A stretch of 42,291 bases of DNA from Escherichia phage Lidtsur: sequence record NC_048177.1, one strand, 5' to 3'. The notes beneath the pieces are model-generated. The model was given only the letters and a program-made list of their open reading frames with translations, searched no databases and had not been told where the DNA came from. This document shows positions 1-41,786 of this stretch, in pieces. The position numbers and the translations under genes were made by a program. Position 1 is the first letter of the stretch. Each line of letters starts with the position of its first letter.

Positions 1-393
1 ATGTACCGTATCTATGCAAGCGCATATCGTCAGGCAAACGCTGAGTGTGTTAATCTGGCGCTTCATTGCAAGGCACTGCGAACGGTGCAGGATATGTTCG
101 GAGTGATTCCGGTCACACTGACAGGCAAGTTTAACGATGCGTATGAGTTAAGCATGGTCTTCCCTGTCGATGGAATCTACGAAATCAGACAGGCTGTTAA
201 GCTGTTCTGTAAAGCCTTTGAACAGGACTGCATCATGGTAGTGACCGATGATGATGATGCAATCTTCATGGATTCACCATATCCGGGCAAGCCTGCTGGC
301 AAGTTTGTCAGCAAGACTGAGGCCGAAATGGAAGCCGGGCAATTCACTGCTTGGACTTACGATGGTGAGCAATTTTGGGTAGTGGAGGCATAA
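1..393 (+). CDS. hypothetical early protein (130 aa)
   Basis: ORF starts at ATG at position 1; a GGAG Shine-Dalgarno (CAACTGGAGAAATAACT) lies at the last bases of the window, so the gene is intact only if the contig is circularly permuted; acidic DDDD stretch; no recognisable domain. Confidence 0.5.
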   Translation: MYRIYASAYRQANAECVNLALHCKALRTVQDMFGVIPVTLTGKFNDAYELSMVFPVDGIYEIRQAVKLFCKAFEQDCIMVVTDDDDAIFMDSPYPGKPAGKFVSKTEAEMEAGQFTAWTYDGEQFWVVEA

Positions 394-394
394 A

Positions 395-469
395 ATGTTC
401 GCAGCACTGTGTGTACTGGCTGCGCTCTGCTGGGTAGTAGACCAGCGCCTGAGCAAACGCCGTGGCTGA
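395..469 (+). CDS. possible 24-aa hydrophobic peptide (MFAALCVLAALCWVVDQRLSKRRG)
   Basis: ATG 7 nt after GGAGG; short hydrophobic stretch then basic tail; below track cutoff, read directly from sequence. Confidence 0.2.
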   Translation: MFAALCVLAALCWVVDQRLSKRRG

Positions 470-529
470 TAGCCTATAGCGTCCTACGGGGCGCTATGTG
501 AAATCAACCAAACCGACAAGGGGTTTATC

Positions 530-1054
530 ATGCAATTCAAATACACTAGCTTCAAAAACGTTGTCCAGCTCGACAAGGCTATCGCTGAGTCAATCAGCAG
601 CGCTAAAACACTGCGTGAAGGTATTCAGGACGTGGCTGTAGGCATTCTGATGCACGCTTACAAGCACGGTGACTACACTCGTGCTGAGCATTACGTCAAC
701 GGGCTTGGAACAGGCGTTCGCCAGAAAGCTCTGGTTGACTGGTTCGTCCAGTTTGGTGGCCTGACCATCGGCACCCGCAGCAACGGCAACGTTGGTTTCG
801 TGGGCTGGAAAGGCGCTGAGCACATCAAAGCCAACTTTGACAAGGCCAAAGAGACTGGCTGGTGGACTTGCAAGCCTGAATCTGCGTTCGAAGGGTTCGA
901 CCTGCAAGCTGCGCTCGACAAGCTGATTGCCAAAGCTGAAAAGGCAATGAACAAGGCAAACGAGCTGCGCCATGAAGGGCGTGATGAGGATGCGAACAAG
1001 GTTGTCGTGCCTCAGAACGTGCTGGACGGCCTGCGCAAGCTGAAAGCTGCGTGA
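530..1054 (+). CDS. hypothetical early protein (174 aa)
   Basis: Track ORF; ATG preceded by AAGGGG; no recognisable motif. Confidence 0.6.
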   Translation: MQFKYTSFKNVVQLDKAIAESISSAKTLREGIQDVAVGILMHAYKHGDYTRAEHYVNGLGTGVRQKALVDWFVQFGGLTIGTRSNGNVGFVGWKGAEHIKANFDKAKETGWWTCKPESAFEGFDLQAALDKLIAKAEKAMNKANELRHEGRDEDANKVVVPQNVLDGLRKLKAA

Positions 1055-1061
1055 TTACTGA

Positions 1062-1084
1062 CAGCCCATTCACTGAGTGGGCTG
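1062..1084 (+). promoter_or_regulatory. intergenic stem-loop, type A (CAGCCCA-9nt-TGGGCTG)
   Basis: Perfect 7-bp inverted repeat with TTCACTGAG loop immediately after the stop of the upstream gene; near-identical copy at 1453-1475. Confidence 0.45.
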
Positions 1085-1095
1085 GATTGTAACCA

Positions 1096-1108
1096 CGGCA
1101 ATAATGCC
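1096..1108 (+). promoter_or_regulatory. conserved 5'-leader motif CGGCAATAATGCC
   Basis: One of four copies of GGCAAT(C/A)(A/C)TGCC located ~25 nt upstream of the start codons of the paralogous acidic genes. Confidence 0.4.
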
Positions 1109-1129
1109 ACAAACCAACTGGAGATTACC

Positions 1130-1435
1130 ATGTCCAAAATTACTGTAGTCCTGCTGCGTGACCTGCCTGCCTCCGCTTTCTCTGGCGGCCACGTTGAAGA
1201 AATGCAACAGCGTGAATACGTGGCGCTGACCGATGGCAGCCGCTATCTGATTGCAGGCATCAACAAAGACCACGATAGCAAAGAGACTATCGAGGCGCAC
1301 TTCCGGGCGAATGGCATCGACCCTGACCTGCCGCTGCCGCTCGTCGCCATGATGAACAGCGTGCCGCTGCTGGATGCCGCCGATGTGGAAGGTGCGACCA
1401 TTGACGAAGTGTTCAGCGTTGAATCCGCAGCCTAA
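1130..1435 (+). CDS. small acidic early protein, paralogue family member 1 (101 aa)
   Basis: ATG with GGAG SD; N-terminus MSKITVVLL resembles MTKLVLI / MTKVTVLL / MAKVTAYF of neighbours; acidic composition. Confidence 0.65.
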   Translation: MSKITVVLLRDLPASAFSGGHVEEMQQREYVALTDGSRYLIAGINKDHDSKETIEAHFRANGIDPDLPLPLVAMMNSVPLLDAADVEGATIDEVFSVESAA

Positions 1436-1452
1436 CGAGCTGGATTAACTGA

Positions 1453-1475
1453 CAGGCCATTCAATGAGTGGCCTG
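1453..1475 (+). promoter_or_regulatory. intergenic stem-loop, type A (CAGGCCA-9nt-TGGCCTG)
   Basis: 7-bp inverted repeat, loop TTCAATGAG; flanks (CTGGATT..ACTGACAG / ATTGT.AACC) also match the 1062 copy. Confidence 0.45.
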
Positions 1476-1512
1476 AATTGTTAACCCAACCAATAGTCTA
1501 AGGAGACTTAAA

Positions 1513-1785
1513 ATGGCAAATGCGTACATTGCTCGCGGCGTAGATTCTCAGAAGGTTCTGGCCTACGTCCTGCGTGACAGCGACACTGAATCCCTGATTG
1601 CTCACACTCGTAAAGAGGGCGAGCCGGAAGAGGCCGAGGCTGTGCTGGCTGAACTGAAAAAGGTAGGCGTACCGCCTGCTATCGCTTTCCTGATTCACGG
1701 CATCCCGGAAGACACACTACAAGAGGTTGCTGAGCCGTTGTGGGGTGAGCGTGTGGAGCTGGAACACGTAGGCGTTGTTGAATAA
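1513..1785 (+). CDS. small acidic early protein, paralogue family member 2 (90 aa)
   Basis: AAGGAG SD; shares KK(V/L)G..(A/I)(F/G)FLIHG motif with the 2585 gene. Confidence 0.65.
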   Translation: MANAYIARGVDSQKVLAYVLRDSDTESLIAHTRKEGEPEEAEAVLAELKKVGVPPAIAFLIHGIPEDTLQEVAEPLWGERVELEHVGVVE

Positions 1786-1790
1786 CAGCG

Positions 1791-1836
1791 GGCTTGACTC
1801 AAGCCATCTTGCGAGGTGGCTTTATGGCAATCCTGC
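1791..1836 (+). promoter_or_regulatory. type B leader element: two short hairpins (loop TTGCGA) plus TGGCAATCCTGCC motif
   Basis: GGCTTG-ACT-CAAGCC and GCCAUC-TTGCGA-GGUGGC stems followed by the conserved GGCAAT..TGCC motif; repeated at 2164 and 2524. Confidence 0.45.
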
Positions 1837-1860
1837 CTCTTAAATTCTGGAGTAATTATC

Positions 1861-2157
1861 ATGACTAAACTCGTACTGATTCGCGGCATCGCTGCTGAAA
1901 AATTTGAAGACGGCGTATCCGCTCCGGTGCTGGCTATCGAGGGTGAAGATACCTTCGCAATCCTGCAAGGTCTGTCGGACGGCTACAACATCGACGAAAT
2001 CAAAGCTGGTGCTCTCGAACAGCTTGGCGAGTCGGGCGATGAGCTGCCGCCTGAGTTCCTGTGGCCTATGCTGTTCAGCAACGGAGTGAACAAAGACAGT
2101 GACGACCTGAAAGGCACGGAAGTTGAAGTGCTGCATGTGTTCGGCGCTGCTGCGTGA
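1861..2157 (+). CDS. small acidic early protein, paralogue family member 3 (98 aa)
   Basis: Internal ATG of track ORF 1816-2157 chosen because GGAG SD lies 8 nt upstream and N-terminus MTKLVLI matches paralogues. Confidence 0.65.
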   Translation: MTKLVLIRGIAAEKFEDGVSAPVLAIEGEDTFAILQGLSDGYNIDEIKAGALEQLGESGDELPPEFLWPMLFSNGVNKDSDDLKGTEVEVLHVFGAAA

Positions 2158-2163
2158 TGCCCG

Positions 2164-2201
2164 GTTGCCTCCTTGCGAGGGGGCAACATGGCAATCATGC
2201 C
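2164..2201 (+). promoter_or_regulatory. type B leader element: 9-bp stem hairpin (loop TTGCGA) plus TGGCAATCATGCC
   Basis: GTTGCCTCC-TTGCGA-GGGGGCAAC stem-loop followed by conserved motif. Confidence 0.45.
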
Positions 2202-2222
2202 CCAACCTATCGAGGATTTATC

Positions 2223-2516
2223 ATGACCAAAGTAACCGTACTGCTGACCAGTGACAAAGTAACCCTCATCGCTCTGCTGGGTGATGCTGTAGAAGATACG
2301 CCGTCACTGGCTCTGGATATCAAGCCGGGTTCCGACCTGTCTGCTGCTATCGCTGAACTGGAAACGCAGTTGAAGAAACCGACTGCGCCTATCATGTTCA
2401 TCGTGAATGGTGGCGGGTACAGCCCGGAAGCGGCAGCGCAGTACAGCCCGGAGAAAGTGGCTGAGTTCACTGTCGATAACCCGGCGCTGGATGAGTTCGT
2501 CGCTGCTGTAGCGTGA
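2223..2516 (+). CDS. small acidic early protein, paralogue family member 4 (97 aa)
   Basis: Internal ATG of track ORF 2154-2516; GAGGA SD; N-terminus MTKVTVLL. Confidence 0.65.
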   Translation: MTKVTVLLTSDKVTLIALLGDAVEDTPSLALDIKPGSDLSAAIAELETQLKKPTAPIMFIVNGGGYSPEAAAQYSPEKVAEFTVDNPALDEFVAAVA

Positions 2517-2523
2517 TTTCTGT

Positions 2524-2562
2524 CTGCCCTTGCATAGTCGAGGGCAGTAGGGCAATCATGCC
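2524..2562 (+). promoter_or_regulatory. type B leader element: hairpin CTGCCCT-10nt-AGGGCAG plus GGGCAATCATGCC
   Basis: 7-bp inverted repeat followed by conserved motif. Confidence 0.45.
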
Positions 2563-2584
2563 ACAACTAACTGAGGGTTCAATC

Positions 2585-2875
2585 ATGGCTAAAGTAACTG
2601 CGTACTTCTCTGCATCCCAAAAAGATATCATCGCTGTGGTCGGCGACGGTCTGGCTCAGGGCAACATGGCACTGTGCACCAGCGGCACCGAGAGCGGCGA
2701 CACTTTCGACACCAAAGAAAGCGCCATCGCTGGGCTGCCGACTCTGTTCGACGATATCAAAAAGCTGGGGGCTATTGGCTTCCTGATTCACGGTGGCGCG
2801 TTGAATGATGACGCTGCTGAGCGTATGGTCGCCGATGGTTATGAAGAAATCGGCTCTATCGAAATCGAAGAGTAA
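2585..2875 (+). CDS. small acidic early protein, paralogue family member 5 (96 aa)
   Basis: Internal ATG of track ORF 2513-2875; GAGGG SD; strongly acidic C-terminus. Confidence 0.65.
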   Translation: MAKVTAYFSASQKDIIAVVGDGLAQGNMALCTSGTESGDTFDTKESAIAGLPTLFDDIKKLGAIGFLIHGGALNDDAAERMVADGYEEIGSIEIEE

Positions 2876-2897
2876 TGCCAGCGCTTGAAGTGTTGGC

Positions 2898-2937
2898 GAT
2901 GATTAGCTGCCATGTAGGTGTTGGCACGCTAATCATC
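2898..2937 (+). promoter_or_regulatory. long imperfect stem-loop (about 15 bp stem), candidate RNase III site or early terminator
   Basis: GATGATTAGC+TGCCA pairs with TGGCA+c+GCTAATCATC around a 9-nt loop; lies in the only sizeable gap of the early region; no downstream U-tract. Confidence 0.4.
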
Positions 2938-2985
2938 TACATCGTTCGCGCTGCCCATAAATCATACAAACGTTAGGAGTTTTGC

Positions 2986-3162
2986 ATGAAGATTGCGGTA
3001 ACACGGAGCGGTGCGAGCCACGTTGCGCACAAGATGCACTTCCTGTTTCACTCGCTGTATCTCACAGCGGCTGCGCTCGAAGGGCATCTGTTCTATAGCA
3101 TCATGGCAGGGGGCACCTTACTGTTCATGTTAGGCACGGCGGTGCTTGGCGATGAACACTAA
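2986..3162 (+). CDS. small hydrophobic membrane protein (58 aa)
   Basis: ATG 8 nt after TAGGAG; translation MKIAVTRSGASHVAHKMHFLFHSLYLTAAALEGHLFYSIMAGGTLLFMLGTAVLGDEH; below track cutoff. Confidence 0.4.
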   Translation: MKIAVTRSGASHVAHKMHFLFHSLYLTAAALEGHLFYSIMAGGTLLFMLGTAVLGDEH

Positions 3163-3325
3163 TCTGCTGGGCTGGGTGAAGAGGGTGGAGCGTCGCCACT
3201 GGGAGACAGCCATCATTCTCAAGGTGGGTATCAGCGCTGGACTGGCTGCTGCTTACTTCTTGCCTACCTCCGCAGCAATAGCCGTTGGCATCAGCATCAA
3301 CTTGCTATGGTTGTGGAAGCTGTAA
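3152..3325 (+). CDS. small hydrophobic membrane protein (57 aa)
   Basis: ATG overlaps the stop region of the preceding small ORF; translation MNTNLLGWVKRVERRHWETAIILKVGISAGLAAAYFLPTSAAIAVGISINLLWLWKL has one clear TMD. Confidence 0.35.
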   Translation: MNTNLLGWVKRVERRHWETAIILKVGISAGLAAAYFLPTSAAIAVGISINLLWLWKL

Positions 3326-3396
3326 GCAGTGGATTACTCAAGGCTGTCCAGCGGGTAGCCTTTATGAAATCCATTCCACAAACAGAGGGTATTAAC

Positions 3397-3663
3397 ATGA
3401 GCAAATTAAAATTAGGTCAGCGCGTTAAATCAACTTGGTTCAACGACGCTGTAGGTGTGGTTGTGTACCGTGGCGATACTGGTGAGAGCCTGCCTGCATT
3501 CGATGCGCACCCGGATGTAGATATGTACCGTGGTCTGGCGTCTGATGACGATGACTTCATCGTCCTGTTCGACGACACGCAGGCCGAAGGTGTTAGCGGC
3601 GAACTGGCTGGCGTGCTGGGTTACGGCTACGACAATGACGGCGACTTCGAAGCGTTGGAGTAA
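3397..3663 (+). CDS. acidic hypothetical protein (88 aa)
   Basis: Internal ATG of track ORF 3307-3663 preceded by AGAGGG; very acidic (DDDD, DNDGD). Confidence 0.55.
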   Translation: MSKLKLGQRVKSTWFNDAVGVVVYRGDTGESLPAFDAHPDVDMYRGLASDDDDFIVLFDDTQAEGVSGELAGVLGYGYDNDGDFEALE

Positions 3664-3665
3664 GC

Positions 3666-3998
3666 ATGGCATTCCACAAAGTGAAAGTGTATCGCGGCAA
3701 GGACTTCGAGGATGGTGAGCACGTTGTCGTGCTGACCTACCTGTTGCCCGACTACCGCGAGGGTCTGGTTGTGTTTAACCAGTTTGAAATCTTAGGTCAT
3801 CACATGACCGCAGAAGATGCAACAGACGAACAGATTATTGAGCGTGTCAAGGCGTACACTGGTGGCCGCCCGTTCATCATTGACCTGCTGAATGACCAGC
3901 ACTTCAATGCTGCCGACCGCACGATGCGGCAATGGGTCGCTACCATGACGCCTATCTTTCAGGGCGACATGTATCTGTTCGGCATAGCCGAGGGATAA
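3666..3998 (+). CDS. hypothetical protein (110 aa)
   Basis: Track ORF, tightly packed behind upstream gene. Confidence 0.55.
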   Translation: MAFHKVKVYRGKDFEDGEHVVVLTYLLPDYREGLVVFNQFEILGHHMTAEDATDEQIIERVKAYTGGRPFIIDLLNDQHFNAADRTMRQWVATMTPIFQGDMYLFGIAEG

Positions 3999-4000
3999 TC

Positions 4001-4315
4001 ATGAAAGTAAGCAGAGGTTTCCTGTTTGTCCTGCTGGTACTGGCTACTCTGTATGTCAGCACCTGCACAATGGCACTGGCTGCCACTATGGAGAAGGTGC
4101 ATTTGGATGCGTATGATGTACCGCTGGGCGCACCTGATGGACAGGTGTACTCTGCTTGCGTCATTGACCTGCATCAAGGCGGCACCATTAGCACGCTGGC
4201 CTACGTTGGCGAGTGCGAAGCGGTGCTGCCACACCTCAAAGAAAAACTGGAGGGCGATGGCACGACCACCATCGTCACTCTATCAATCAATGGTCACAAT
4301 ATTAATCTGACATGA
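4001..4315 (+). CDS. predicted secreted or membrane-anchored early protein (104 aa)
   Basis: Internal ATG of track ORF with GAGGG SD; N-terminus MKVSRGFLFVLLVLATLYVSTCTMALA looks like a signal peptide. Confidence 0.55.
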   Translation: MKVSRGFLFVLLVLATLYVSTCTMALAATMEKVHLDAYDVPLGAPDGQVYSACVIDLHQGGTISTLAYVGECEAVLPHLKEKLEGDGTTTIVTLSINGHNINLT

Positions 4316-4322
4316 GGTGACT

Positions 4323-4472
4323 ATGGGTGGCAGCACATACAATGCCCACGCCAATCAGATAACCTACGCAGGTTACTGCGCACTTGGTGGGGCAAGCAAT
4401 CCAAATCTGGTGAGCCGTGCCGTGTATCTCGGCAGCCACTTCATGCACTGGGAATATTATTTAGTGAGGTAA
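4323..4472 (+). CDS. possible small ORF (49 aa)
   Basis: ATG after GAGGTGA; fills the gap between 4315 and 4478; below track cutoff. Confidence 0.3.
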   Translation: MGGSTYNAHANQITYAGYCALGGASNPNLVSRAVYLGSHFMHWEYYLVR

Positions 4473-4477
4473 CTATC

Positions 4478-4765
4478 ATGTCACTGGCAAGCGAATCAAT
4501 CGTGGATGTTGCTGCACTCATTCATGATGAAGAAGAACAGCGCGGCGTCGCCGCAACCCGTGGCCACCTTGCAGGTAATGGTGGGCTGCGTGGTCATTCA
4601 GTCGGCGGCGTATTCCCCTGCGTAATCTACGCGACGGGCAACATCCACGCAGCACCACCAGTCTGGAACTTCAAGTCACCGGATGGGGTGGAGCACACTG
4701 GCTTCATCAGTTATGAAGATGCGGAAGCAGCCGCGCAAATCTGGCTGGAAGAAAGAGAGGTATGA
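4478..4765 (+). CDS. hypothetical protein (95 aa)
   Basis: Track ORF; GTGAGG SD. Confidence 0.5.
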   Translation: MSLASESIVDVAALIHDEEEQRGVAATRGHLAGNGGLRGHSVGGVFPCVIYATGNIHAAPPVWNFKSPDGVEHTGFISYEDAEAAAQIWLEEREV

Positions 4766-4766
4766 T

Positions 4767-5066
4767 ATGTCCAATCCAAAATGGGAAGCGCTGGTACAGT
4801 GGGTGAAGGATGCCTTTGGGCCTATGCCAACTGCCGTGGCTGACCCGGAGCCGTTCGAGTACATCACCAAGACCAGTGAGCAACTGGAAATCGGTGACTA
4901 CATCGTCGCTTACTCTGGCTATGTGCAGCGCCTCGGTGCCGTCGAGTATGATGGCAAGCGCTTGGTAGTAACCAAGTCCGGTCACTCTCCTGAGTATGAG
5001 TTCTATGCTTACGAGAATGACAAGTTCTCAATCCGTAAAGTAAAAGGTAAATCACATGGCTATTAA
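4767..5066 (+). CDS. hypothetical protein (99 aa)
   Basis: Internal ATG of track ORF 4683-5066 after AGAGAGG SD, 2 nt past the upstream stop. Confidence 0.5.
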   Translation: MSNPKWEALVQWVKDAFGPMPTAVADPEPFEYITKTSEQLEIGDYIVAYSGYVQRLGAVEYDGKRLVVTKSGHSPEYEFYAYENDKFSIRKVKGKSHGY

Positions 5067-5571
5067 TTTTGAAAAGTTTAACAAGCAGCAGCTTGCAGTT
5101 GTGTGCCAGCTCGGTAATGAAATCGACGCCACCCCTGATGTGCACGATATTATCGAGTTCCGTGGCGGGTTCATCCCGAAGGTAGTGTACGTCGCTGCGG
5201 TGCGTAACAACCGTGTTGACAGCATCGGCATCATTCAGCCTACCCGTACGGGTGCAGTCCTTGCCCGCAACGTGACCCTCATCGCCAGCCTGAGCGCCAA
5301 GCAAATGGAACTGGAAGGTGACAGAGAGGGCGTCGTTGCTATGCAGATGGCAGCCAGCTTAGCGGTACGCTTTGCATGTGAAGAGACTGTGCATGATTCG
5401 TATCATGAATGGTTCCTCGCCTGCGAGCATGTGCCGTCCGACCTGACAGAGACGCAGCTCAGCCTCCTGTTCGCTGGCGAAGTTCTCGACCAGATGCTGC
5501 ACCAATTACAGGGTGGCCTGTCTGAATTAATGGAAGCGGCGCGGGGTGTCAAACGTGCTACGCTCCACTAA
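5056..5571 (+). CDS. hypothetical protein (171 aa)
   Basis: Track ORF; start overlaps upstream gene end. Confidence 0.55.
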   Translation: MAINFEKFNKQQLAVVCQLGNEIDATPDVHDIIEFRGGFIPKVVYVAAVRNNRVDSIGIIQPTRTGAVLARNVTLIASLSAKQMELEGDREGVVAMQMAASLAVRFACEETVHDSYHEWFLACEHVPSDLTETQLSLLFAGEVLDQMLHQLQGGLSELMEAARGVKRATLH

Positions 5572-5737
5572 TCTGGTGGTTCGTAAATCACCCACTGGTA
5601 AACACTGGTGGGTGGTTTATGAAGACCTGCCGACATATCCGTTCGCAGTGCGCGAAACAAAATGGGAGGCCGAAGCTAAGCGCGACGACCTTCAACGTAT
5701 AGTAAATAGCATGGGGATAAGTGAATGCCACGCATAA
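5546..5737 (+). CDS. hypothetical protein (63 aa); start uncertain (GTG)
   Basis: Track ORF with GTG start overlapping upstream gene by 26 nt; true start may be a downstream GTG. Confidence 0.35.
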   Translation: MSNVLRSTNLVVRKSPTGKHWWVVYEDLPTYPFAVRETKWEAEAKRDDLQRIVNSMGISECHA

Positions 5738-5964
5738 CAAAAGTGGAAGACCTGAAAGAAGGTGATGTGTATCAACTGTCCGGCGGTATCTTCTGCGCGG
5801 TTGTGCTCGACACCAATAAGAGTGGGTTTAATTATGTTGGCCTCGATAAAGAAGACAGCAACACTCTTGTATTCGTTGGGGTAGATAATGGCCAGCCTCA
5901 GTATTTCCCGGAGGGTTTACTTGACGACCCGGATACTGAATACGGAATGGTATCAAAGGCTTAG
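5725..5964 (+). CDS. hypothetical protein (79 aa)
   Basis: Track ORF. Confidence 0.45.
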   Translation: MPRITKVEDLKEGDVYQLSGGIFCAVVLDTNKSGFNYVGLDKEDSNTLVFVGVDNGQPQYFPEGLLDDPDTEYGMVSKA

Positions 5965-6032
5965 ATATTTACTCATGGCATTCTTGATGGATGCCATTAT
6001 GAAAGTATCTGTTAAGCACAACCGGAGGAAAT

Positions 6033-6233
6033 ATGCTCAAAGTATTAGCGCTGTTTGTAGCTGTAGTTATTTTGTGGGGTGTTGCGTGGGTAGGTATCGC
6101 CTATCTTATTGCACCCTATATCGGGACGCAGCTTACTGGTGTGTTAGGCACACTGCTTGGCTTCGTCGTGGGCGCAGTTGGTATGACCAAGTGCATCGAC
6201 TATGGCTGGGGTAAAGGGTGGATTAAATGGTAG
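6033..6233 (+). CDS. small membrane protein, two predicted TMDs (66 aa)
   Basis: CGGAGGAA SD; sequence is almost entirely two hydrophobic helices. Confidence 0.5.
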   Translation: MLKVLALFVAVVILWGVAWVGIAYLIAPYIGTQLTGVLGTLLGFVVGAVGMTKCIDYGWGKGWIKW

Positions 6234-6679
6234 ACAAGACTTATGCGATGGGCGACCGCATCCGACAGGTAGGCTCCAACTGTGGCACACGCCGTGGCTC
6301 TGAGGGTATCGTAATATATGCGCGGCCTGATGCCCCGAAGGGTGAAACGAAATACCTCGTTCACTGGTACATGTCAGAGAACGGCTACCGCAGGACTGAG
6401 CCAGAGATAGGGCGCTACAAATCTGACTGGCTGACGTCCAACACCATACTCATAGGCGAGCCTGAACCTGCACCTGAGCAGGGCCGGGGCAGATTCATGT
6501 GCCTCGTTGAAGGTGGTACGACGCCGCCGCGACTCATCCACACTACCGAAGAGTCAGCTCGCCGTGAAGCTGAGCGTCTATCCAGAGTGCATGGTGTCAC
6601 AGCCCGCGTCTTGCGTGTCGTTGGTAGTGTCAACATGAAGCGCATAGTGCAGTACGAGCCGGAGTGGGACAACGAATGA
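6227..6679 (+). CDS. hypothetical protein (150 aa)
   Basis: Track ORF. Confidence 0.55.
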   Translation: MVDKTYAMGDRIRQVGSNCGTRRGSEGIVIYARPDAPKGETKYLVHWYMSENGYRRTEPEIGRYKSDWLTSNTILIGEPEPAPEQGRGRFMCLVEGGTTPPRLIHTTEESARREAERLSRVHGVTARVLRVVGSVNMKRIVQYEPEWDNE

Positions 6680-7389
6680 GAAAGACAGTGAGCAATGACG
6701 AATGGCCGGAGCTGGCGAGGCGTCTGCCGATAGGACAAAAGCGTCGGACGTTTCACGCTTGCTCGCGCTCATTCAGTAAGACCAACTTTGAGTATGGCCG
6801 GAACAGCGAGGGCGTATGGTGCAAGTGCCACCGCTGCGGCCACTCTGATTTTCAACCCCTCAACCATGCACCATACATACCGCCAGCCAAAGAGCAGGTG
6901 AAGGTGCCGACTGATGTTGTCCCTCTCATTGAGGTGATAGCCAAACAGCCGGGACTTCTGCTGCCAGCGCTGGAGAAGAATGAGCTGCTGCCACACCTCA
7001 GTGTGCTGACTGCCAGCCCAACGTATGGGCGTATCTATCTGCCGGATAATTCGGCCAGCTACTGTGGTCTGGATTATACCGGGCGGCAGTTCATACCGTG
7101 GCGCTCGCCACACAACCACCTAATGGCAGTGACTGTCACCAACCACGATGAGGATGAGACGCGAGGCATATGGATTTACGATGCCGCCGCCGACTATCTT
7201 GAGCATGTGCGTAGAGGTGACAGAGTGGATGGCAACGCCGCGTTCGTAGCCAATGCAGATGATGCCACCATACGCGCTCTGGTTAGCGTTGTGCTGGCCA
7301 ATCGCTATGAAGTGATATCAATACACCACCACCAAAGCGACAGGCTCAGACGCGAGCTGAGAGTGTGTGGCAGGGTGCGAACAATATAG
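6676..7389 (+). CDS. putative DNA primase (zinc-binding N-terminus)
   Basis: ATG overlapping upstream stop (ATGA); Cys/His cluster HAC...CKCHRC near N-terminus; sits directly upstream of the helicase as in phages with split primase and helicase. Confidence 0.5.
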   Translation: MRKTVSNDEWPELARRLPIGQKRRTFHACSRSFSKTNFEYGRNSEGVWCKCHRCGHSDFQPLNHAPYIPPAKEQVKVPTDVVPLIEVIAKQPGLLLPALEKNELLPHLSVLTASPTYGRIYLPDNSASYCGLDYTGRQFIPWRSPHNHLMAVTVTNHDEDETRGIWIYDAAADYLEHVRRGDRVDGNAAFVANADDATIRALVSVVLANRYEVISIHHHQSDRLRRELRVCGRVRTI

Positions 7390-10029: not shown

Positions 10030-12489
10030 GTGAGAGTGCAGATAATCGACGTCGAGACAGAGAACAATGATTGGTTCGGTGAGCTGGCATCGCCACGCTG
10101 CCCGGACAATTATGTTGTCATGCAAGGCCAACGAGACTGCGAACTGACCAAGGATGGCTGGGAGTTCTATGAGCGCGAAGAGTATCGGTACTCGTCTAAG
10201 GAAGACTGGGCAGAGAACAAGTCTCTGCACCTGCATCCTGATACGAAGATGCTGGTAGCCCATAACGCGCCGTACGAATTAAGCTGGTGGTTCATGCACT
10301 ATGGGGATGAGTTCATTGACTTCCTCAAACGTGGTGGCCGTGTGTTCTGTACAGCGTACGCCGAGTACCTGCTGACACACCAGCAATCCCAGTACCCATC
10401 CTTGAACGAGACTGCCCCGAAGTATGGCGGTACTCACAAGGTTGATGCAGTCAAAGCAATGTGGGAGGCAGGTTATCTCACAAGCCAGATTGACCCTGAG
10501 CTGTTGAGTGAATACTTATCAGGGCCGAGCGGCGATATCGAGAACACCACGAAGGTGTTCGTCGGGCAATGGAAGGAACTTGAAAAGCAAGGGATGTTGA
10601 AGATGGCGCTCACTCGCATGGAAGGTATGCTGATGTGGGCGTACATGATGCACTCCGGTCTGCACGTAGACCGCGAGGTTGCCGAGCGCAATCGCCAAGA
10701 GCTGATGACGCAAATCAATGAGCTGACTGATAAGCTGCTGGACTACCTGCCGGACGACATGCCGCAGGAAGCCCGCGAGCAATTCAAGTTCACGTCTGCT
10801 TATCACATGAGCGCATTCGTATTCGGCGGCGTGTTCAAATACAAAGCCCGTGTACCGCGCACGGACGACGGTGGCAATCCTATCTATGTGAAGGTTGACG
10901 CACCGCTGTTCAAGCGCGGCAAGGAGAAGTGGTTGAAGCACAAGGATGAGTGCGTGTTCGATGAAGAGTCCGGGCTATGGTATGACCCGGTAGAGAAGGT
11001 GCACCAGTGTCTTTACACGGCTGGCAAGTTCAAGGGTGAACCCAAGTACGAGCGGCTGGCCACCGATGAGGTGGACATGAAGTGGGGCGAGCTGACCTGT
11101 AAGCTGCCCGGTCTGCTGCGCGACAAAGATAGGCGAGCGCGTGAGATTGCAGACAACCTTCTGTGGGAAGACCCGAAGCGTCCGGGCGAATATCTGCGGC
11201 GCACTGGTGATTGGGTAGGTAAGCGTAAGCTGGCTGATGGCACCCCGGTGTTCAGTACAGCAGGCGAGGTGCTGGACATTCTGGCAGCGCGTAAGATTCC
11301 CGGCGTCGTTGAGATTGCCGACCGCGCTAAAGCACAGAAAGACCTTGGCACCTACTACCTGAGCGAGACGTTCGATGAGGAAGGTAATGTTACTGGTCAG
11401 TCTGGTATGATGCAGTTCATCCAGCCGGACGGTATCGTACACCACACCATCAACATGACCGCCACCGAAACTACTCGACTCTCATCGGCTCGACCAAATA
11501 GCCAGAACCTTCCACGCAAAGGCACGAGTAAAGTTAAGCAGATGTTCACCTCCCGGTTTGGGCCGGACGGTCGCATCGTTGAGGCTGACTACTCAGCGCT
11601 GGAAGTAGTAGGGCTGGCGGGATTCAGTAAGGACAGGAACCTCGTCAAAGCTCTGATGGATAACATCGACATGCACTGTATGCGTCTTGCCGCGCAGCTC
11701 AATGAGGACTACGAAGAGGTCAAGCGTAAGGCTAAGGATGAGTCACATCCTGAGCACGAGCGCTATAGCCAGATGCGTACAGACATTAAGCCCAAGGCAT
11801 TCTCGTATCAGTATGGTGCGACGGCGCGAGGTATCGCGTACTCCACTGGCTGCACTGAGGAAGAGGCGCAGGCATTCATCGACAACGAGAAAGCCCTGTT
11901 CCCGGAAGTGGAATCATGGTTTGAATCGGTTATCTTCCCGGCTGTGGAGCGCAGCGGTCAGAGCAATATCTTCAAGGAGCAGGATGAGAATGGACGGTGG
12001 TGCGTCTACCGCCGTGGCTTCTTCAAGTCTCCGGGTGGTACGTGTTACTCATTCCGTCAGTATGAGAAATGGGATAGCGCAGCCCGCAGTTACTTGATGA
12101 TGTACAAGCCAACCCAAATGCGTAACTATCCGATTCAGGGTGAGACAGCGTTTTGGGTGCAGGGTATCGGTGGCCTGTTGTTCCGCTGGCTGCTGGCCAA
12201 TGACTTCTTTGGTGGGCGCGTGGTTCCCATCAACCAAGTGCATGACGCATTCTATTTCGACATAGCGCCTGACTGCCCGCATGAGTTCTTCGTTGGACTC
12301 AAGGCAATCATGGAGTGCATCCCGGAATACTTCAACCACGTATGGCCTGAGTATGACCTGAGAGTTCCGTTCCCGGCAGAGGTGGAAGCAGGCCCAAGCA
12401 TGTATGAGAAGCACCACGTAGAGACGACAGCCGAAGAAGTGCTGGAGTTCAAATGTAATTTCCTGAAATCTAAGGGTATCAAGATATGA
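10030..12489 (+). CDS. family A DNA polymerase with 3'-5' exonuclease domain
   Basis: GTG start after GGAG; Exo I IIDVETE; Pol motif A DYSALEVV, motif B KAFSYQYGA, motif C QVHDAFYFD; 819 aa. Confidence 0.9.
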   Translation: MRVQIIDVETENNDWFGELASPRCPDNYVVMQGQRDCELTKDGWEFYEREEYRYSSKEDWAENKSLHLHPDTKMLVAHNAPYELSWWFMHYGDEFIDFLKRGGRVFCTAYAEYLLTHQQSQYPSLNETAPKYGGTHKVDAVKAMWEAGYLTSQIDPELLSEYLSGPSGDIENTTKVFVGQWKELEKQGMLKMALTRMEGMLMWAYMMHSGLHVDREVAERNRQELMTQINELTDKLLDYLPDDMPQEAREQFKFTSAYHMSAFVFGGVFKYKARVPRTDDGGNPIYVKVDAPLFKRGKEKWLKHKDECVFDEESGLWYDPVEKVHQCLYTAGKFKGEPKYERLATDEVDMKWGELTCKLPGLLRDKDRRAREIADNLLWEDPKRPGEYLRRTGDWVGKRKLADGTPVFSTAGEVLDILAARKIPGVVEIADRAKAQKDLGTYYLSETFDEEGNVTGQSGMMQFIQPDGIVHHTINMTATETTRLSSARPNSQNLPRKGTSKVKQMFTSRFGPDGRIVEADYSALEVVGLAGFSKDRNLVKALMDNIDMHCMRLAAQLNEDYEEVKRKAKDESHPEHERYSQMRTDIKPKAFSYQYGATARGIAYSTGCTEEEAQAFIDNEKALFPEVESWFESVIFPAVERSGQSNIFKEQDENGRWCVYRRGFFKSPGGTCYSFRQYEKWDSAARSYLMMYKPTQMRNYPIQGETAFWVQGIGGLLFRWLLANDFFGGRVVPINQVHDAFYFDIAPDCPHEFFVGLKAIMECIPEYFNHVWPEYDLRVPFPAEVEAGPSMYEKHHVETTAEEVLEFKCNFLKSKGIKI

Positions 12490-17314: not shown

Positions 17315-19747
17315 ATGATGGATTTGCTGGCAGAACAGATTCGACTGGAAGAAGAAGCCCGCGCACGCCATCGCGCGGGGTGGTTAGACAACATCAAAGC
17401 AGCGATGGATGAAGGGCGGGCATCGGCTGTGCCGCTGTTGCAGCGTGCAATGGTTAAGGCTTATCCGACTGTCGAAGCAGCTATGCAGGAAATCCTGAAT
17501 GAGAATACTCGCGGCTTTGGTGCGCAGTACCGGACGCACATGCGGGAGATTGGGGTGAAGACCTGCGCTACTCTGGCGCTCAGCATGGCAATGTCAGGGG
17601 CGGTAGAGAAGGTCGCTGTTACGCAGCACCTACGCAGCATGGGGCAGGCTCTAATGGCTGAGGTGGTGTACCACAAAGCCTCAGCCAGAGGTGCGCGTGA
17701 AGCGGCTTACATGCAGCGTGTGGGGCAAGACGTTAAGCGCTCCAAGTCGAAGTCTCCCAATCACATCTACAACAAGGCCCGCGCATCGGCGGCTAACGTT
17801 GGGGTGCACATGGATGTGTTGCCTCAGCGTGCGCTCATCACAATCGGTAAGATGATGATGCGTGCAGTCGAACCAACAGGTCTGGTCAAGACTATCCGTA
17901 TCGGTGGCAGCGCCAGACAGCGTGGCACTGCACACTTCGCTCTGCATGATGATGTGATTATCATGCTCAACGACTGGATTAAGCTGCCCGATATGACAGT
18001 AGGCTGCTACCCAGTGATGATTATCCCGCCTGCGGAAATTAATCCCAATGGGCTTGGTGGTATGTGGCACTCTCCGGGGCAGGCGGCGACGTATCAGGCA
18101 ATCAGCCGACTGCGCCACAAAGAGTACCGCGCTCAGAAGGTAGACCCGCTACCCATTATCGAGCCGTGTATGATGCTCAGTGGCACGCCGTTCCGTATCA
18201 ATAAGATGGTGCTGGAGTTCCTACAAAACAACCACACTGGCGTTATGGGCCTGCCTGCTGCGCCAGTGGAACCTAAGCTGCCATTCACAATCCCGGAAGG
18301 TGTGAGCTTTGCTCAGTACATCAGCAGGTTCCCGCCTGAAATGCAGCAGAGGATGGACGCTGAGGCGCATGAATTTAAGGTTAAAACCCGCATGTACCAT
18401 AATGAGTACCGCAGGTTTACAACCAAGGTGCAGGCGCTCGGAAGTGCGCTGGCTGAGGCTAAGCGCTACTGTGCATACGAGCGTATCTACCTGCCGACAT
18501 ACGCCGACACTCGTGGCCGAATCTACTACGCATCGTCTCTGAATCCTCAAGGTATCGACGCAATAAGGGCGCTGCTAGAATTAGCCGACGCTGTGCCGCT
18601 TGGCAGTGAAGGGTTGTTCTGGCTGAAAGTGCATGTGGCCAACTGCTTCGGCTATGACGCCACTGACTTTGAAGACCGGGCGGCTTGGACTGACAAGACC
18701 CTGCCAAGACTTCGTGAAGCCTGCCGACTGCCGGAGGCTTACGACTCATTCTGGTCTGAGGCCGATAGTCCTCTGTGTGCATGGGCAGCTTCTGTAGAGC
18801 TGGTGCGTGCGCTGGATAGCGGCAACCCGGAAGAGTACCCGTGCCGCGTTGTTACGCAGTGGGATGCAACTTGCTCAGGTCTACAGCACCTGTCGGCTAT
18901 GCTCCGTGATGAGGTGGGCGGTGCTGCCGTCAACCTGATTAACTCGCCGGGGCGCAAAGCCGATATCTACCTCAAGACTGCTGACGCAGCAATGGCAGCA
19001 CTGCGCGAGTCTGAGGCATCCTGCAAGACTGAGCTGGGGCAGTGGCTGTTGAAGATTGGCATCCAGCGTGCGATGGCCAAGAAGCCTGTAATGACCTACG
19101 TTTACGGGGCAACCCGCCACGGTATGGTTGATTACTATGCCCTGTACCTGCGCGAGAACAACATCCCATTGCCTCCCGGACACAGCCTGTTCGAGTGTGC
19201 GATGTTCATTGCCGGGATTATGTGGGACGCTATACCGCGAGTGGTTCCTAAAGCGGCAGAGCTTATGGCTTGGTTGCAATCTCTGGCGACTATGGTGGCA
19301 GAGAAAGGAGAGTACGTTGAGGTGATAGCTCCGTCAGGCTTACGGATGGTTAATCTGTATCAGGCTTCGAAAGAGGCAGCTATGGGCCTGAACCTAATGG
19401 GTGTGCACGGCATTAAGATTAGGGAATGGCTGGATAAGCCGGACTCCCGTAAGTGTGCAGCAGCTATCTCACCCAACTTTGTGCACGCTATGGATGCCAG
19501 CCACATGATGAAAGTGCTGTGGGAAATGTGGAATAACGGGGTTTACATGGTGTCTATCCATGACTCCTTCGGCGTTGCGGCAGCACACGCTGGGCTGTTG
19601 CACAGAGTCATCCGTGAAAAATTCGTGCAGATGTACGAGGAACATGACCCTATTCAGCAACTTGCTGAAAGATATGGTGTTGAGCCTCCGGCTAAAGGCC
19701 AGTTGGATATCAAAGAGGTGCTGAAATCTACCAAGTTTTTCTGCTGA
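17315..19747 (+). CDS. single-subunit DNA-dependent RNA polymerase (T7-like)
   Basis: WDATCSGLQH (motif A), AKKPVMTYVYGATRHG (motif B) and VSIHDSFGV (motif C) parallel T7 RNAP catalytic motifs; 810 aa. Confidence 0.9.
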   Translation: MMDLLAEQIRLEEEARARHRAGWLDNIKAAMDEGRASAVPLLQRAMVKAYPTVEAAMQEILNENTRGFGAQYRTHMREIGVKTCATLALSMAMSGAVEKVAVTQHLRSMGQALMAEVVYHKASARGAREAAYMQRVGQDVKRSKSKSPNHIYNKARASAANVGVHMDVLPQRALITIGKMMMRAVEPTGLVKTIRIGGSARQRGTAHFALHDDVIIMLNDWIKLPDMTVGCYPVMIIPPAEINPNGLGGMWHSPGQAATYQAISRLRHKEYRAQKVDPLPIIEPCMMLSGTPFRINKMVLEFLQNNHTGVMGLPAAPVEPKLPFTIPEGVSFAQYISRFPPEMQQRMDAEAHEFKVKTRMYHNEYRRFTTKVQALGSALAEAKRYCAYERIYLPTYADTRGRIYYASSLNPQGIDAIRALLELADAVPLGSEGLFWLKVHVANCFGYDATDFEDRAAWTDKTLPRLREACRLPEAYDSFWSEADSPLCAWAASVELVRALDSGNPEEYPCRVVTQWDATCSGLQHLSAMLRDEVGGAAVNLINSPGRKADIYLKTADAAMAALRESEASCKTELGQWLLKIGIQRAMAKKPVMTYVYGATRHGMVDYYALYLRENNIPLPPGHSLFECAMFIAGIMWDAIPRVVPKAAELMAWLQSLATMVAEKGEYVEVIAPSGLRMVNLYQASKEAAMGLNLMGVHGIKIREWLDKPDSRKCAAAISPNFVHAMDASHMMKVLWEMWNNGVYMVSIHDSFGVAAAHAGLLHRVIREKFVQMYEEHDPIQQLAERYGVEPPAKGQLDIKEVLKSTKFFC

Positions 19748-23530: not shown

Positions 23531-24523
23531 ATGGCCGACAACTACTATCAGCCGAATCAGTTCCGTCCACACTGGGGTGGCGCGAACTCTGATAACGACA
23601 TTCACCTTGAGGTGTATGACCGTGATGTTCAGACCCAGTTCATCTACAACTCCATCTTCCGTTCCGGCCTGACCAACTTCAAGTCTGTGGCTAACCAGTC
23701 CAACACTTGGCGTGGCGACCGCCTCGGCTCCGTGACCGTCAAAGGTCGTAAGTCTGGTCAGTCTCTGGAGAACCAGCCAGTTCGCTCCGAGAAGCTGATT
23801 GTCACTGTTGATACGGTGTCTTATATCCGTATCCCGATTGACTATCAGGACGACTGGACTGCGCCGGACTTCCGTGCTGAGCTGACCCGTAACATGGGTA
23901 CATCTCAGGCGAAAGCGTTCGACCAAGCGCACGTCATCCAGCTCCAGAAGTCTGCTGACTTCGTACCGCCTGCATCTCTGGCTGGTGCGTTCAACGCAGG
24001 CATCAAGGAGAAAGTGACGCTGACTGGTACTGTAGCTTCTGAGGAAGACGACGCCAGCGCACTGGTTCACGGTCACAAGAAAGTGATTGAGGCATTCATC
24101 CGCCGCGACGCAGACCTTGGCCGTCTGGTTACGCTGATTGACCCGGCGTGGTTCAGCATTCTGCTGGAGCACAAGAAACTGATGAACGTTGAGTTCACTG
24201 GTGGCCGTGGCGTCAACGACTTCGCTATGCGCCGCGTAGCTTACGTCAACGGCGTACGCCTGATTGAGAGCAACGCTTTCCCGCAGGCTGCAATCACTGA
24301 CCACATTCTCGGCCCTGACTTCAACGTCACCGCTGAGGAAGTGAAGCGTAAGATGATTATCTTCGACCCGTCTCTGGCGCTGGTCACTGTCGAAGCCCAA
24401 CCGCTGTTCAACCGCGTGTGGGATGACGAACGTGAGATGACCAACGTACTGGACAGCTTCCACATGTACACCGTGGGTCAGAAGCGTCCTGACGTGGTTG
24501 GTGTAGTCACCACCGAAGCCTAA
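23531..24523 (+). CDS. major capsid protein
   Basis: 330 aa ORF following scaffold gene, T7 gp10-like size and position; followed by a hairpin. Confidence 0.8.
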   Translation: MADNYYQPNQFRPHWGGANSDNDIHLEVYDRDVQTQFIYNSIFRSGLTNFKSVANQSNTWRGDRLGSVTVKGRKSGQSLENQPVRSEKLIVTVDTVSYIRIPIDYQDDWTAPDFRAELTRNMGTSQAKAFDQAHVIQLQKSADFVPPASLAGAFNAGIKEKVTLTGTVASEEDDASALVHGHKKVIEAFIRRDADLGRLVTLIDPAWFSILLEHKKLMNVEFTGGRGVNDFAMRRVAYVNGVRLIESNAFPQAAITDHILGPDFNVTAEEVKRKMIIFDPSLALVTVEAQPLFNRVWDDEREMTNVLDSFHMYTVGQKRPDVVGVVTTEA

Positions 24524-24533
24524 TGGCAAACTC

Positions 24534-24557
24534 GAAGCCCTTCGCAAGAGGGGCTTC
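24534..24557 (+). terminator. stem-loop downstream of capsid gene (GAAGCCC-10nt-GGGCTTC)
   Basis: 7-bp GC-rich inverted repeat 11 nt after the capsid stop; position parallels the T7 post-capsid terminator; no strong U-tract. Confidence 0.35.
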
Positions 24558-24579
24558 TATGATTGTCACTGGAGGTTTT

Positions 24580-40899: not shown

Positions 40900-41410
40900 C
40901 CTCCCTCGACTCGAAGGAGCGCCTGCGCCCCCGTACGCCTGTGCGCGTGCGCGTGCATGACGTGTGCGCATTATGCGCGTGTGCCTGCGCGTGCGGTATT
41001 GCTCGCGTGCGTGCGGTAACAGCTCGCGCGTGCCCGTTTCCATTGTCGCGGTGTGGCGTGCTGTGCTCTGCGCGGTGCTGTGCCACTGCTGGCTGTGCCA
41101 CTGCTACCACTGGACGCGCCTGCGCTGGCCTGCGCTGGTATCGGCTCCGGTCGTGGCGGGTATCTATCTCTTTTGCCTGCGTGCTGCGCCTGCGTCCTGT
41201 CACTGCCTGCTAGCGCCTGCTATCTGCCTGCGCTCGCCTGCCTCCAGCTACTCCAGCTAATCGCGTCACTGCTACTAGCCGTTGCTAGCCGTGATACTTG
41301 CTATCCGTTCGCGTTCTCTCGCTATCCACTGCGTGTCCAGCTCGCTCCGCTCCGCGCTCCGCTACCGCACTGCGTGCTGCGTCGCTTACGCTGCGTATCG
41401 CTTACAGCTT
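40900..41410 (+). repeat. A-depleted GC-rich short-repeat tract, probable terminal-repeat / packaging region
   Basis: About 500 bp almost free of A on the + strand, built from reiterated TGCGCG, CCTGCGC, GCTGCG, GCTCCGC units; non-coding; sits between last and first gene. Confidence 0.5.
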
Positions 41411-41570: not shown

Positions 41571-41599
41571 TTGCAATGCTGTTTGTGATTTGCTGTAAT
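41571..41599 (+). promoter_or_regulatory. sigma70-type early promoter candidate P1
   Basis: -35 TTGCAA (41571-41576), 17-bp spacer, -10 TGTAAT (41594-41599). Confidence 0.55.
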
Positions 41600-41675
41600 T
41601 CATCTCGCCGGGTAGCAATGCAGCGCTACACGGTGGGCTAGATGGTTAGCCAGCTCTTTAACAATCTGGAGTGTA

Positions 41676-41704
41676 TTGACAAGCGAGTCTCACTATGCTG
41701 TAAT
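41676..41704 (+). promoter_or_regulatory. sigma70-type early promoter candidate P2
   Basis: -35 TTGACA (41676-41681), 17-bp spacer, -10 TGTAAT (41699-41704). Confidence 0.65.
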
Positions 41705-41756
41705 ACGCTCCAGATTGACAGGGCAAGCAAGCCTGACAGTCAGTAGTAAAAAGTGG

Positions 41757-41786
41757 TTGACAAGCCGATTCAAGATGTGATGTAAT
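41757..41786 (+). promoter_or_regulatory. sigma70-type early promoter candidate P3
   Basis: -35 TTGACA (41757-41762), 18-bp spacer, -10 TGTAAT (41781-41786); P2 and P3 share the TTGACAAGC core. Confidence 0.6.

Follow-up and report, generated by a model that had tools for sequence, protein, structure and literature searches.

Escherichia phage Lidtsur (NC_048177.1) has all of its genes on the + strand, and the window analyzed here, that is, the whole stretch of 42,291 bases, is the complete phage genome. The sequence is circularly permuted such that base 1 is the start of gene 1, a SAM-hydrolase-like anti-restriction gene. Because sigma-70-like promoters at 41571-41786 sit just upstream of gene 1 across the permutation junction, the stretch 1-6000 is most likely an early operon transcribed by the host RNA polymerase. 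Part of this operon, from 1062 to 2562, is punctuated by five intergenic stem-loops, and the genes between them are distant paralogues, to which a PHROGs search with the array proteins assigned no function. An original prediction had sorted the stem-loops into two families, type A (here A1 and A2) and type B (B1-B3), and had proposed that they are cut by host RNase III, with attenuators and protein-binding sites as alternatives. Homology to the RNase III sites of phage T7, architecture, and covariation, all computed here, support the RNase III proposal; from them we infer cleavage at these elements, which are probably intercistronic processing signals of the T7 type.

Re-reading of the window sequence places all five elements at the coordinates claimed for them, except that the first type B element, correctly located at 1791-1836, has a box that ends at 1837, one base beyond the end given. 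The type A elements read CAGCCCA-TTCACTGAG-TGGGCTG (1062-1084) and CAGGCCA-TTCAATGAG-TGGCCTG (1453-1475), while type B consists of a hairpin (1803-1820, 2164-2187, and 2524-2547) and a downstream box, which is GGCAATCCTGCC at 1826-1837 and GGCAATCATGCC at 2190-2201 and 2551-2562. Type A had been described as a 7-bp stem with a 9-nt loop; folding gives 10 bp and a 3-nt loop instead. Every element also has a second, lower helix, absent from the earlier description, with a small internal loop between it and the upper helix. The lower stem often includes the stop codon of the upstream gene, and in type B the GGCAAUNNUGCC box forms its 3' strand; the 5' strand comes from the end of the upstream gene (final sense codon, stop codon, and the next few bases), such that GCG-UGA-UU pairs with AAUCAUGC. 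We had considered 7-bp hairpins too small for RNase III, an objection that was dropped after folding revealed the lower stems.

The elements stand out from the rest of the sequence. Folding z-scores of the intergenic regions against shuffled sequences range from -2.2 to -5.2, and the sequence GGCAATNNTGCC occurs four times in 42 kb versus 0.11 expected, its copies being confined to the intergenic regions of interest; the fourth copy, at 1097-1108 after A1, had been overlooked. The type A core is present twice in the window versus 0.34 expected. No part of the window matches an Rfam family at gathering thresholds, and there is no Rfam family for the elements. Both types are real, but they are better regarded as sub-variants of one larger family, with at least three more members (3326-3377, 5961-6012, and 24520-24572), to which 461-512 may be added as a candidate. 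The nine sites are all located in intergenic gaps on the + strand, and in their minimum-free-energy folds the upper stem has 9-10 bp and the lower stem 7-11 bp, giving 18-21 bp in total. Placement right after a stop codon holds, as the gaps begin 0-7 nt from it, and the next start, said to be 25-40 nt away, is at a measured distance of 21-45 nt.

Within this common plan the sites differ in detail. A1 (1049-1108) has the lower stem GUGAUUAC/GUAACCAC, which holds the stop codon UGA (1052-1054), followed by the upper stem at 1062-1084 and GGCAAUAAUGCC at 1097-1108; in its orthologues from J8-65, smaasur, and LIMEzero the upper stems are fully compensated. A2 (1441-1490) is T7 R1-like, with the lower stem UGG.AUUAAC/GUUAA.CCA and a UA/UG distal box in the upper stem at 1453-1475; its fold has an energy of -23 kcal/mol and its intergenic region a z-score of -5.2. 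B1 (1787-1837), GCGGGCUUGACUCAAGCC...GGCUUUAU^GGCAAUCCUGCC with the caret at the predicted cut, combines a T7-like 5' half and cut region with a GGCAAU-box 3' half. B2 (2152-2201; -32.2 kcal/mol, 20 bp) consists of a lower stem GCGUGAUGCC/GGCAAUCAUGC that holds the stop UGA (2155-2157), a 2x2 internal loop, and a 10-bp upper stem with a UGCG loop, and B3 (2511-2562; -28.9 kcal/mol, 20 bp) of a lower stem GCGUGAUU.../...AAUCAUGC with the stop UGA at 2514-2516 and a 9-bp upper stem. Closest of all window sites to the T7 canon is ACUCAAGG...CCUUUAU^GAA at 3326-3377, which is located between genes 3146-3325 and 3397-3663, beyond the range of the original prediction. The site at 5961-6012 follows gene 5725-5964 and has the stop UAG inside its lower stem, and the site at 24520-24572, with a GCAA loop and a UA/UG distal box, lies between a 330-aa open reading frame (ORF, 23531-24523) and the ATG at 24580. 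By its position in the late-gene block, this ORF is probably the major capsid gene.

Strong hairpins between genes of one operon could in principle attenuate or terminate transcription and so give the genes graded levels of expression. The elements resemble Rho-independent terminators in having a GC-rich hairpin downstream of a stop codon, but differ from them in the conserved lower helix and internal loop and in being directly followed by genes of the same operon. None of the hairpins has a U-rich tract right after it, the tails being GGAUUGUAACC, AAUUGUUAACC, or GGCAAUC..., and no element was called terminator-like on the + strand, so that the attenuator alternative of the original prediction found no support. 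Many kilobases of genes also follow downstream, no new promoter-like site is located among them, and the homologous elements of T7 are processing sites. Attenuation is therefore extremely improbable.

For the comparison with T7 we folded seven sites (R0.3, R0.5, R1, R1.1, R1.3, R4.7, and R18.5), using cut positions that we take to be those of Dunn & Studier 1983 (890, 1468, 3138, 5887, 6450, 13892, and 36856). The feature tables of the GenBank T7 records contain no RNase III sites. All seven fold alike, with an internal loop between a lower and an upper stem. They are cut within CCUUUAU^GA, on the loop's 3' side, and the lower stem of R0.5 and of R18.5 contains the UGA stop of the upstream gene. 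The likeness extends to the primary sequence. T7 R1, CUUACAGGUCAUCUGCGGGUGGCCUGAAUAGG, has its counterpart in A2, CUGACAGGCCAUUCAAUGAGUGGCCUGAAUUGU, and the R1 sequence ACAGG..AUUC/GAGU..CCUGAAU is also present in A1 and A2. Likewise, GACUCAAGG...CCUUUAUG(A/G) of R0.5 and R18.5 corresponds to GACUCAAGCC...GGCUUUAUGG in B1, and the T7 blocks ACUCAAGG...CCUUUAUGA recur in B1, 3326-3377, and 5961-6012.

A covariance model trained on the seven T7 sites only was run unfiltered on both strands of the window. It finds 3326-3377 (44.7 bits, E 1.3e-8), 24520-24572 (37.3 bits, E 9.6e-7), B1 at 1787-1837 (30.0 bits, E 6.8e-5), 5961-6012 (26.9 bits, E 4e-4), A2 at 1441-1490 (25.9 bits, E 7.5e-4), and, marginally, A1 at 1050-1099 (14.8 bits, E 0.5). 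These six + strand matches are all on the sense strand, intergenic, and at or adjoining a stop codon. As a group, the three that lie outside the range of the original prediction are the most T7-like. The only other match in the window at E ≤1 is antisense on the near-palindromic A2 (18.7 bits, E 0.051), beyond which there is one at chance level on the - strand (4067-4089, E 6.1). In the relatives the model gives 20 further matches, the window's own counted, among them orthologues of 3326-3377 in forsur, usur, and glasur at 42-47 bits. When applied as a specificity control to the whole KP34 genome, it picks out a single site (22 bits, E 0.0075; 14.9 bits and E 0.48 for a weaker antisense match on the same site). 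This site, 2266-2318, is a GGCAAU-box element in the early intergenic gap between genes 3 and 4; it begins two bases before the upstream stop codon, has the stop inside its lower stem, and belongs to the B3 class (GCGUGAUUUCU...GGGCAAUCAUGCC).

A second, B-type model was trained on 22 distinct B2/B3-like sequences, with B1 and A1 left out, and matches both B1 (31.1 bits, E 1.5e-11) and A1 (29.5 bits, E 8e-11). B1 is thus recognized independently by two models and is in the training set of neither. Because the T7 model misses B2 and B3 and the reciprocal search gives noise only, the membership of B2 and B3 in the T7 family would be transitive, via the B-type model and KP34 2266-2318.

That the T7 model misses B2, B3, and 461-512 also fits a different role, in which the hairpins would act as stabilizers independent of RNase III, blocking 3' exonucleases or punctuating RNase E decay, and would set half-lives for each cistron with the hairpin left uncut. 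The hairpins are indeed stable, GC-rich, and directly after stops, with extra-stable UNCG-type loops (UGCG and UACG). Such a role would leave unexplained the conserved lower stem and internal loop, the compensatory change between the stop codon and the GGCAAU box described below, and the exact T7 cut context CUCAAGG...CCUUUAUGA kept in B1, 3326-3377, and 5961-6012. We regard it as unlikely.

The nearest relatives of Lidtsur are all of the genus Bonnellvirus (Escherichia phage J8-65, the Danish 'sur' phages, Kosakonia Kc261, and Cronobacter RZ4), and none of them covers the query region well. Conservation in related phages, which the original prediction had named as a check, is found throughout: elements are present at the same positions in 15 of the 15 related early regions compared, as four type B sub-types and as type A variants whose stem sequences vary and always pair. 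In all, about 15 related phages share them, drawn from Bonnellvirus, LIMEzero, and KP34. When 1100-2900 is compared with most relatives by blastn, similarity is restricted to 1787-1865, 2150-2225, and 2511-2578, with 76-88% identity. For the proteins encoded between the sites, identity to the counterparts in those relatives is for the most part 23-60%; it reaches ~70% in J8-65 and smaasur, where nucleotide alignment extends to the gene regions. To judge from these alignments, the elements are more constrained than the genes between them, because in most relatives only the elements keep nucleotide similarity while the proteins diverge. A blastn search of the phage database returned elements of this kind from Bonnellvirus and Pantoea phage LIMEzero only. 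A pattern scan of IMG/VR gave 119 matches, mostly due to chance, of which ~20 real hairpins were retained, many with new upper stems. On IMG/VR contigs (L044, L062, L085, L110, L111, L120, L128, L131, and others), GCGUGAU...GGCAAUCAUGCC sites are seen with at least 10 further unrelated upper stems, each of which pairs perfectly; of the three sites of L128, two have the stop UAA and the box GGCAAUUA.

RNA folding and covariation, also put forward as a check, bear out a two-tier fold with compensatory changes in both helices. In the T7-type alignment of sites from the window and its relatives, 92.4% of cells are paired and 15 of the 21 pairs have changed on both sides, as against 35-46% pairing when the structure is slid by 1-3 columns. 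A MAFFT alignment of 22 distinct type B sequences is 92.2% paired (slid controls 34-50%), with covariation at 10 of 17 pairs; this includes all nine pairs of the upper stem, and the lower stem is 96% paired. Pair 5:47, between the second base of the stop codon and the box, is GC in 18 sequences, AU in 3, and GU in 1. Correspondingly, 18 sequences combine the stop codon UGA with GGCAAUCAUGCC, and 3 combine UAA with GGCAAUUAUGCC or GGCAAUUACGCC, GGCAAUC having become GGCAAUU. In CGCC variants, a G:U pair of the lower stem is replaced by G:C, but the GGCA/UGCC mini-hairpin that the box could form by itself is broken. We had considered this mini-hairpin as the conserved structure of the precursor, which is less likely: both the CGCC and the UACGCC variants break it and keep or improve the lower stem, and the NN positions follow the stop codon. 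The lower stem, rather than the mini-hairpin, thus appears to be what is conserved in the precursor, because the variants break the latter yet keep the former. Each site contains 1-4 G:U pairs, and the sense strand folds more stably than the antisense strand in seven of the nine sites; both features fit a function at the RNA level, on the sense transcript.

GGCAAU and UGCC are near-invariant over three phage genera while their pairing partners vary, and the box lies 21-23 nt ahead of start codons. Both facts would suit an operator for a sequence-specific protein, either a translational regulator acting on the RNA or a dimeric DNA-binder on the palindrome GGCA-N4-TGCC. The box is outside the ribosome-binding site, however, and the variants GGCAAUCACGCC and GGCAAUUACGCC from LIMEzero and IMG/VR break the palindrome and improve lower-stem pairing. 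The G:U pairs and the strand asymmetry also argue against a duplex-DNA site, and no candidate binding protein was found. Nothing thus came to light in favor of the protein-binding sites of the original prediction, and operators are decidedly unlikely.

The recognition boxes, which we assigned by hand alignment to the T7 register, bear on how well the sites might serve as substrates. In Escherichia coli RNase III substrates the distal box is UA/UG and the proximal box is GC, AU/UA, AU, AU/UA; GC at position 4 suppresses catalysis, with a 7- to 14-fold drop in cleavage of a minimal substrate, and the minimal R1.1 substrate has an 11-bp helix from cut site to loop, 11 bp being the shortest reactive length (PMC1540722). 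The proximal box is canonical (G:C, A:U or U:A, A:U, and a non-Watson-Crick pair in fourth place) in B1, 3326-3377, and 5961-6012 and T7 R1-like in A1, A2, and B3; only A1, A2, and 24520-24572 have the UA/UG distal box. Alignment to T7 places the cuts, by prediction, at 1087/1088 in A1, 1478/1479 in A2, 1825/1826 in B1, 2189/2190 in B2, 2550/2551 in B3, 3365/3366 in 3326-3377, 6000/6001 in 5961-6012, and 24560/24561 in 24520-24572, all on the + strand.

Several points weigh against RNase III processing at these sites. The B sites are without the UA/UG distal box, the helix from proximal box to loop is 10 bp rather than 11 bp in several sites, and in the predicted register position 4 of the B2 proximal box is a G:C pair; B2 may be cut less efficiently or one base off the predicted position. 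GGCAAU..UGCC varies less than its pairing with variable partners would call for and may have an extra, sequence-specific role. B2, B3, and 461-512 have no T7-model match in the window up to E 10, and the B-type model, when searched against T7, reaches noise-level scores only, on R1.1, R1, and R18.5. On the methodological side, the T7 cut positions were checked for internal consistency with T7 gene coordinates only, the E-values of the covariance models come from a shortened calibration, and the T7-type alignment was fitted to the structure of the model, which favors pairing. Finally, the literature searched holds no transcript-end data for any Bonnellvirus.

If the elements are RNase III processing signals, a fairly complete pathway can be proposed, in which we infer not only cleavage but also its effects on mRNA stability and translation. 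The host RNA polymerase would start at the promoters at 41571-41786 and produce one long early transcript, in which each intergenic region would fold into a lower stem, an internal loop, and a 9-10 bp upper stem (18-21 bp). Host RNase III would bind this helix of about two turns and, as in T7, cut it on the 3' side of the internal loop only. The upstream mRNA would keep the upper hairpin at its 3' end; in T7, five early signals lie in a polycistronic precursor of ~7000 nt, and 3' hairpins are stability determinants (PMC3867540). The downstream mRNA would begin 20-45 nt ahead of its start codon, and for type B its new 5' end would be pGGCAAUNNUGCC, starting exactly at GGCAAUNNUGCC. Once freed, GGCAAUNNUGCC could form a mini-hairpin whose stem (4 bp, -3.5 kcal/mol) would be flush with the 5' end, ahead of an A/C-rich leader and the Shine-Dalgarno sequence. 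Emory et al. 1992 are said to have found that 5'-terminal hairpins protect E. coli mRNAs, and we speculate that such protection might be the reason why the box is invariant beyond what pairing demands.

The candidate at 461-512 on the + strand is of another, KP34-like type. It comprises a lower stem GGCUGAU/AUCAACC that holds the stop UGA (467-469), an internal loop AGCC/UGAA, and a 10-bp upper stem closed by a C(UACG)G loop, and it is matched by neither the T7 nor the B-type model. Across 41 nt of it, the identity is at least 97% in the listed Klebsiella phage records, and 161 of the 184 matching records are from Klebsiella phages. It contains a conserved 32-nt motif of KP34-like phages, AGCCTATAGCGTCCTACGGGGCGCTATGTGAA, which is almost unchanged at 471-502 and which in KP34 and the window alike lies in early intergenic regions right after a stop codon. 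This motif has been regarded as a putative phage promoter or nick site (PMC4411677), but transcription by KP34 RNA polymerase from a KP34 template that bears it yielded no product (PMC6834552). In KP34 the hairpin is at 1487-1538 and 2508-2559. In an alignment of 13 copies, drawn from the window, Bonnellviruses, and KP34-like phages, the motif is part of a two-tier hairpin with 95.5% of cells paired (100% in the upper and 89% in the lower stem). Six of the seven lower-stem pairs have changed on both sides, and the lower stem comes in four versions (UAAUUAC/GUAAUUA, AGUAGCA/UGCAACU, GGCUGAU/AUCAACC, and UGGUGAC/GUAACCA). It again contains the stop codon of the upstream gene, both in KP34 and in the window. 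By this modeled fold, 461-512 has the architecture of RNase III sites and is a candidate site of a KP34 type. An RNase III-type hairpin would offer an alternative function for a motif that was predicted as a promoter and then shown by experiment not to serve KP34 RNA polymerase as one.

It is possible, if doubtful, that the GGCAAU-box and KP34-type hairpins together represent two specialized RNase III sub-families, serving as translation-gated, 5'-shielding, portable junctions in enterobacterial phages with a phiKMV-like gene order (Bonnellvirus, Waewaevirus, and Drulisvirus). The lower stem would then pair the last codon and stop of the upstream gene with the 5' end of the next mRNA, and termination of upstream translation would therefore gate cutting. 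After the cut, a flush GGCA-AUNN-UGCC mini-hairpin would shield the downstream mRNA from 5'-end-dependent decay, and the elements would be portable junctions between which cassettes of early anti-host genes could be swapped or lost among phages. If true, this would also account for the 'orphan promoter' motif of the KP34-like phages.

The sites are also places where early regions have been rearranged. After gene 2 of mellemsur, at 4998-5062, there is a hybrid hairpin with a type A 5' half and a type B-iv 3' half and a G-G mismatch in the stem, as revealed by comparison with 3885-3935 and 5614-5680 of aldrigsur. In blastn alignments, mellemsur 4301-5027 corresponds to aldrigsur 3193-3911 and 4998-5487 to 5610-6100, the two alignments overlapping inside the site, and mellemsur lacks 1.7 kb with five early genes relative to aldrigsur. 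As read from these alignments, the 1.7-kb deletion is the product of recombination between two sites. The neighbors of site (i) vary across phages, with at least four different genes upstream of it and at least four downstream, and several blocks of similarity between the window and its relatives end inside sites. The sites thus also act as crossover points at which early cassettes are deleted or swapped, in our view a consequence of their repetition and not a function: recombination would occur there because the sites are repeated and alike. In this way, conserved and recombining sites help to explain the mosaic early regions of small, fast-evolving genes. A separate kind of event is seen in forsur, where an unannotated gap at 3805-4023 contains two sites 150 nt apart and a 26-codon in-frame remnant (ATGTCTACACTG...TCTGCGTGA) of a gene that is intact in glasur (2561-2899); this is an internal deletion, not a site-site crossover.

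Since the sites recombine, as the hybrid A/B site and the missing 1.7 kb of mellemsur attest, and since the genes between them are distant paralogues, the elements might be nothing but leftover linkers of a tandem duplication of small genes, devoid of RNA function and kept alike by recombination or gene conversion. The stems of the copies differ and yet always pair, however, which is the opposite of homogenization, and the same signals stand beside unrelated genes such as the 330-aa late ORF 23531-24523 and T7 genes. We therefore hold this to be very unlikely; most likely, RNA processing is the primary role of the elements and recombination a by-product.

The remainder of the genome gives the setting. 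By size and position, the ORFs 10030-12489 and 17315-19747 are presumably DNA polymerase and RNA polymerase, and those after the latter presumably structural genes. The three promoters, read by eye on the + strand at 41571-41599, 41676-41704, and 41757-41786, combine TTGCAA or TTGACA, a spacing of 17-18 nt, and TGTAAT. The unusual -10 hexamer TGTAAT is common to all three, and a consensus promoter scan, which needs A at -10 position 2, missed them. A sigma-70 scan gave no promoter-like sites in 1000-2600; by eye, TTGCGA or CTGACA as a sigma-70 -35 element has no -10 at the right spacing, and a sigma-54 reading of TGGCA...TGC fails because the spacing from GG to GC is 9 nt instead of 12. The region 40900-41400, which separates the early promoters from the last gene, is GC-rich, non-coding, and full of short repeats (CTGCGC, GCGTGC, and CTGCC), and is probably the site of the physical genome ends or a terminal repeat. 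Two small ORFs, 395-469 (24 aa, hydrophobic) and 4317-4472 (51 aa, GTG start), have close counterparts in 'intergenic' parts of annotated relatives (e.g. L001 1858-2004 and L004 6599-6809) and are probably real genes that are unannotated there. In the relatives, a further hairpin family follows later early genes, with CAGCCUCUGCUUGCGGGGGCUG or CUGCCCCUGCGUGCCGGGGGCAG and then UGUCAYUAUCAAA (forsur 6373-6442 and 6677-6745, L004 6590-6650, and L006 4036-4105); no copy is among the window intergenic regions listed, and no search was aimed at it in the window.

None of the Bonnellvirus, LIMEzero, and KP34 records examined has an annotated RNase III site, neither the public records nor the papers on the relatives mention RNase III sites or hairpins, and a literature search on RNase III with LIMEzero, KP34, or Bonnellvirus returned nothing relevant. 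The putative RNase III signals are thus previously unrecognized in this phage group and their GGCAAU-box variant is distinct, while the mechanism itself has been known for decades from T7. The two covariance models could be used to annotate such sites in these phages, and eight cut-site predictions at single-nucleotide resolution result from the present analysis. For phage engineering by insertion or removal of genes, the sites would be worth leaving intact.

Two known systems invite comparison. Arbiol et al. 2010 are said to have described PeSL cassettes of T4-type phages, an early promoter plus a stem-loop between early genes, and to have proposed that they mediate modular gene shuffling. 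Like the PeSLs, the window elements are repeated, conserved, and intergenic, they flank small, fast-evolving early genes, and recombination removes or exchanges the cassettes between them; unlike the PeSLs, they contain no promoter. The closer parallel is T7. Here the differences are that the window genome is phiKMV-like in gene order and of another lineage (Bonnellvirus), that the 3' strand of the lower stem in B1-B3 is the nearly invariant GGCAAUNNUGCC box, and that the CUCAAGG/UUUAUGA blocks have been lost in B2 and B3. What the T7 and window sites have in common is their intercistronic location at or adjoining the upstream stop codon and their succession of a lower stem, an internal loop, and an upper stem of ~10 bp.

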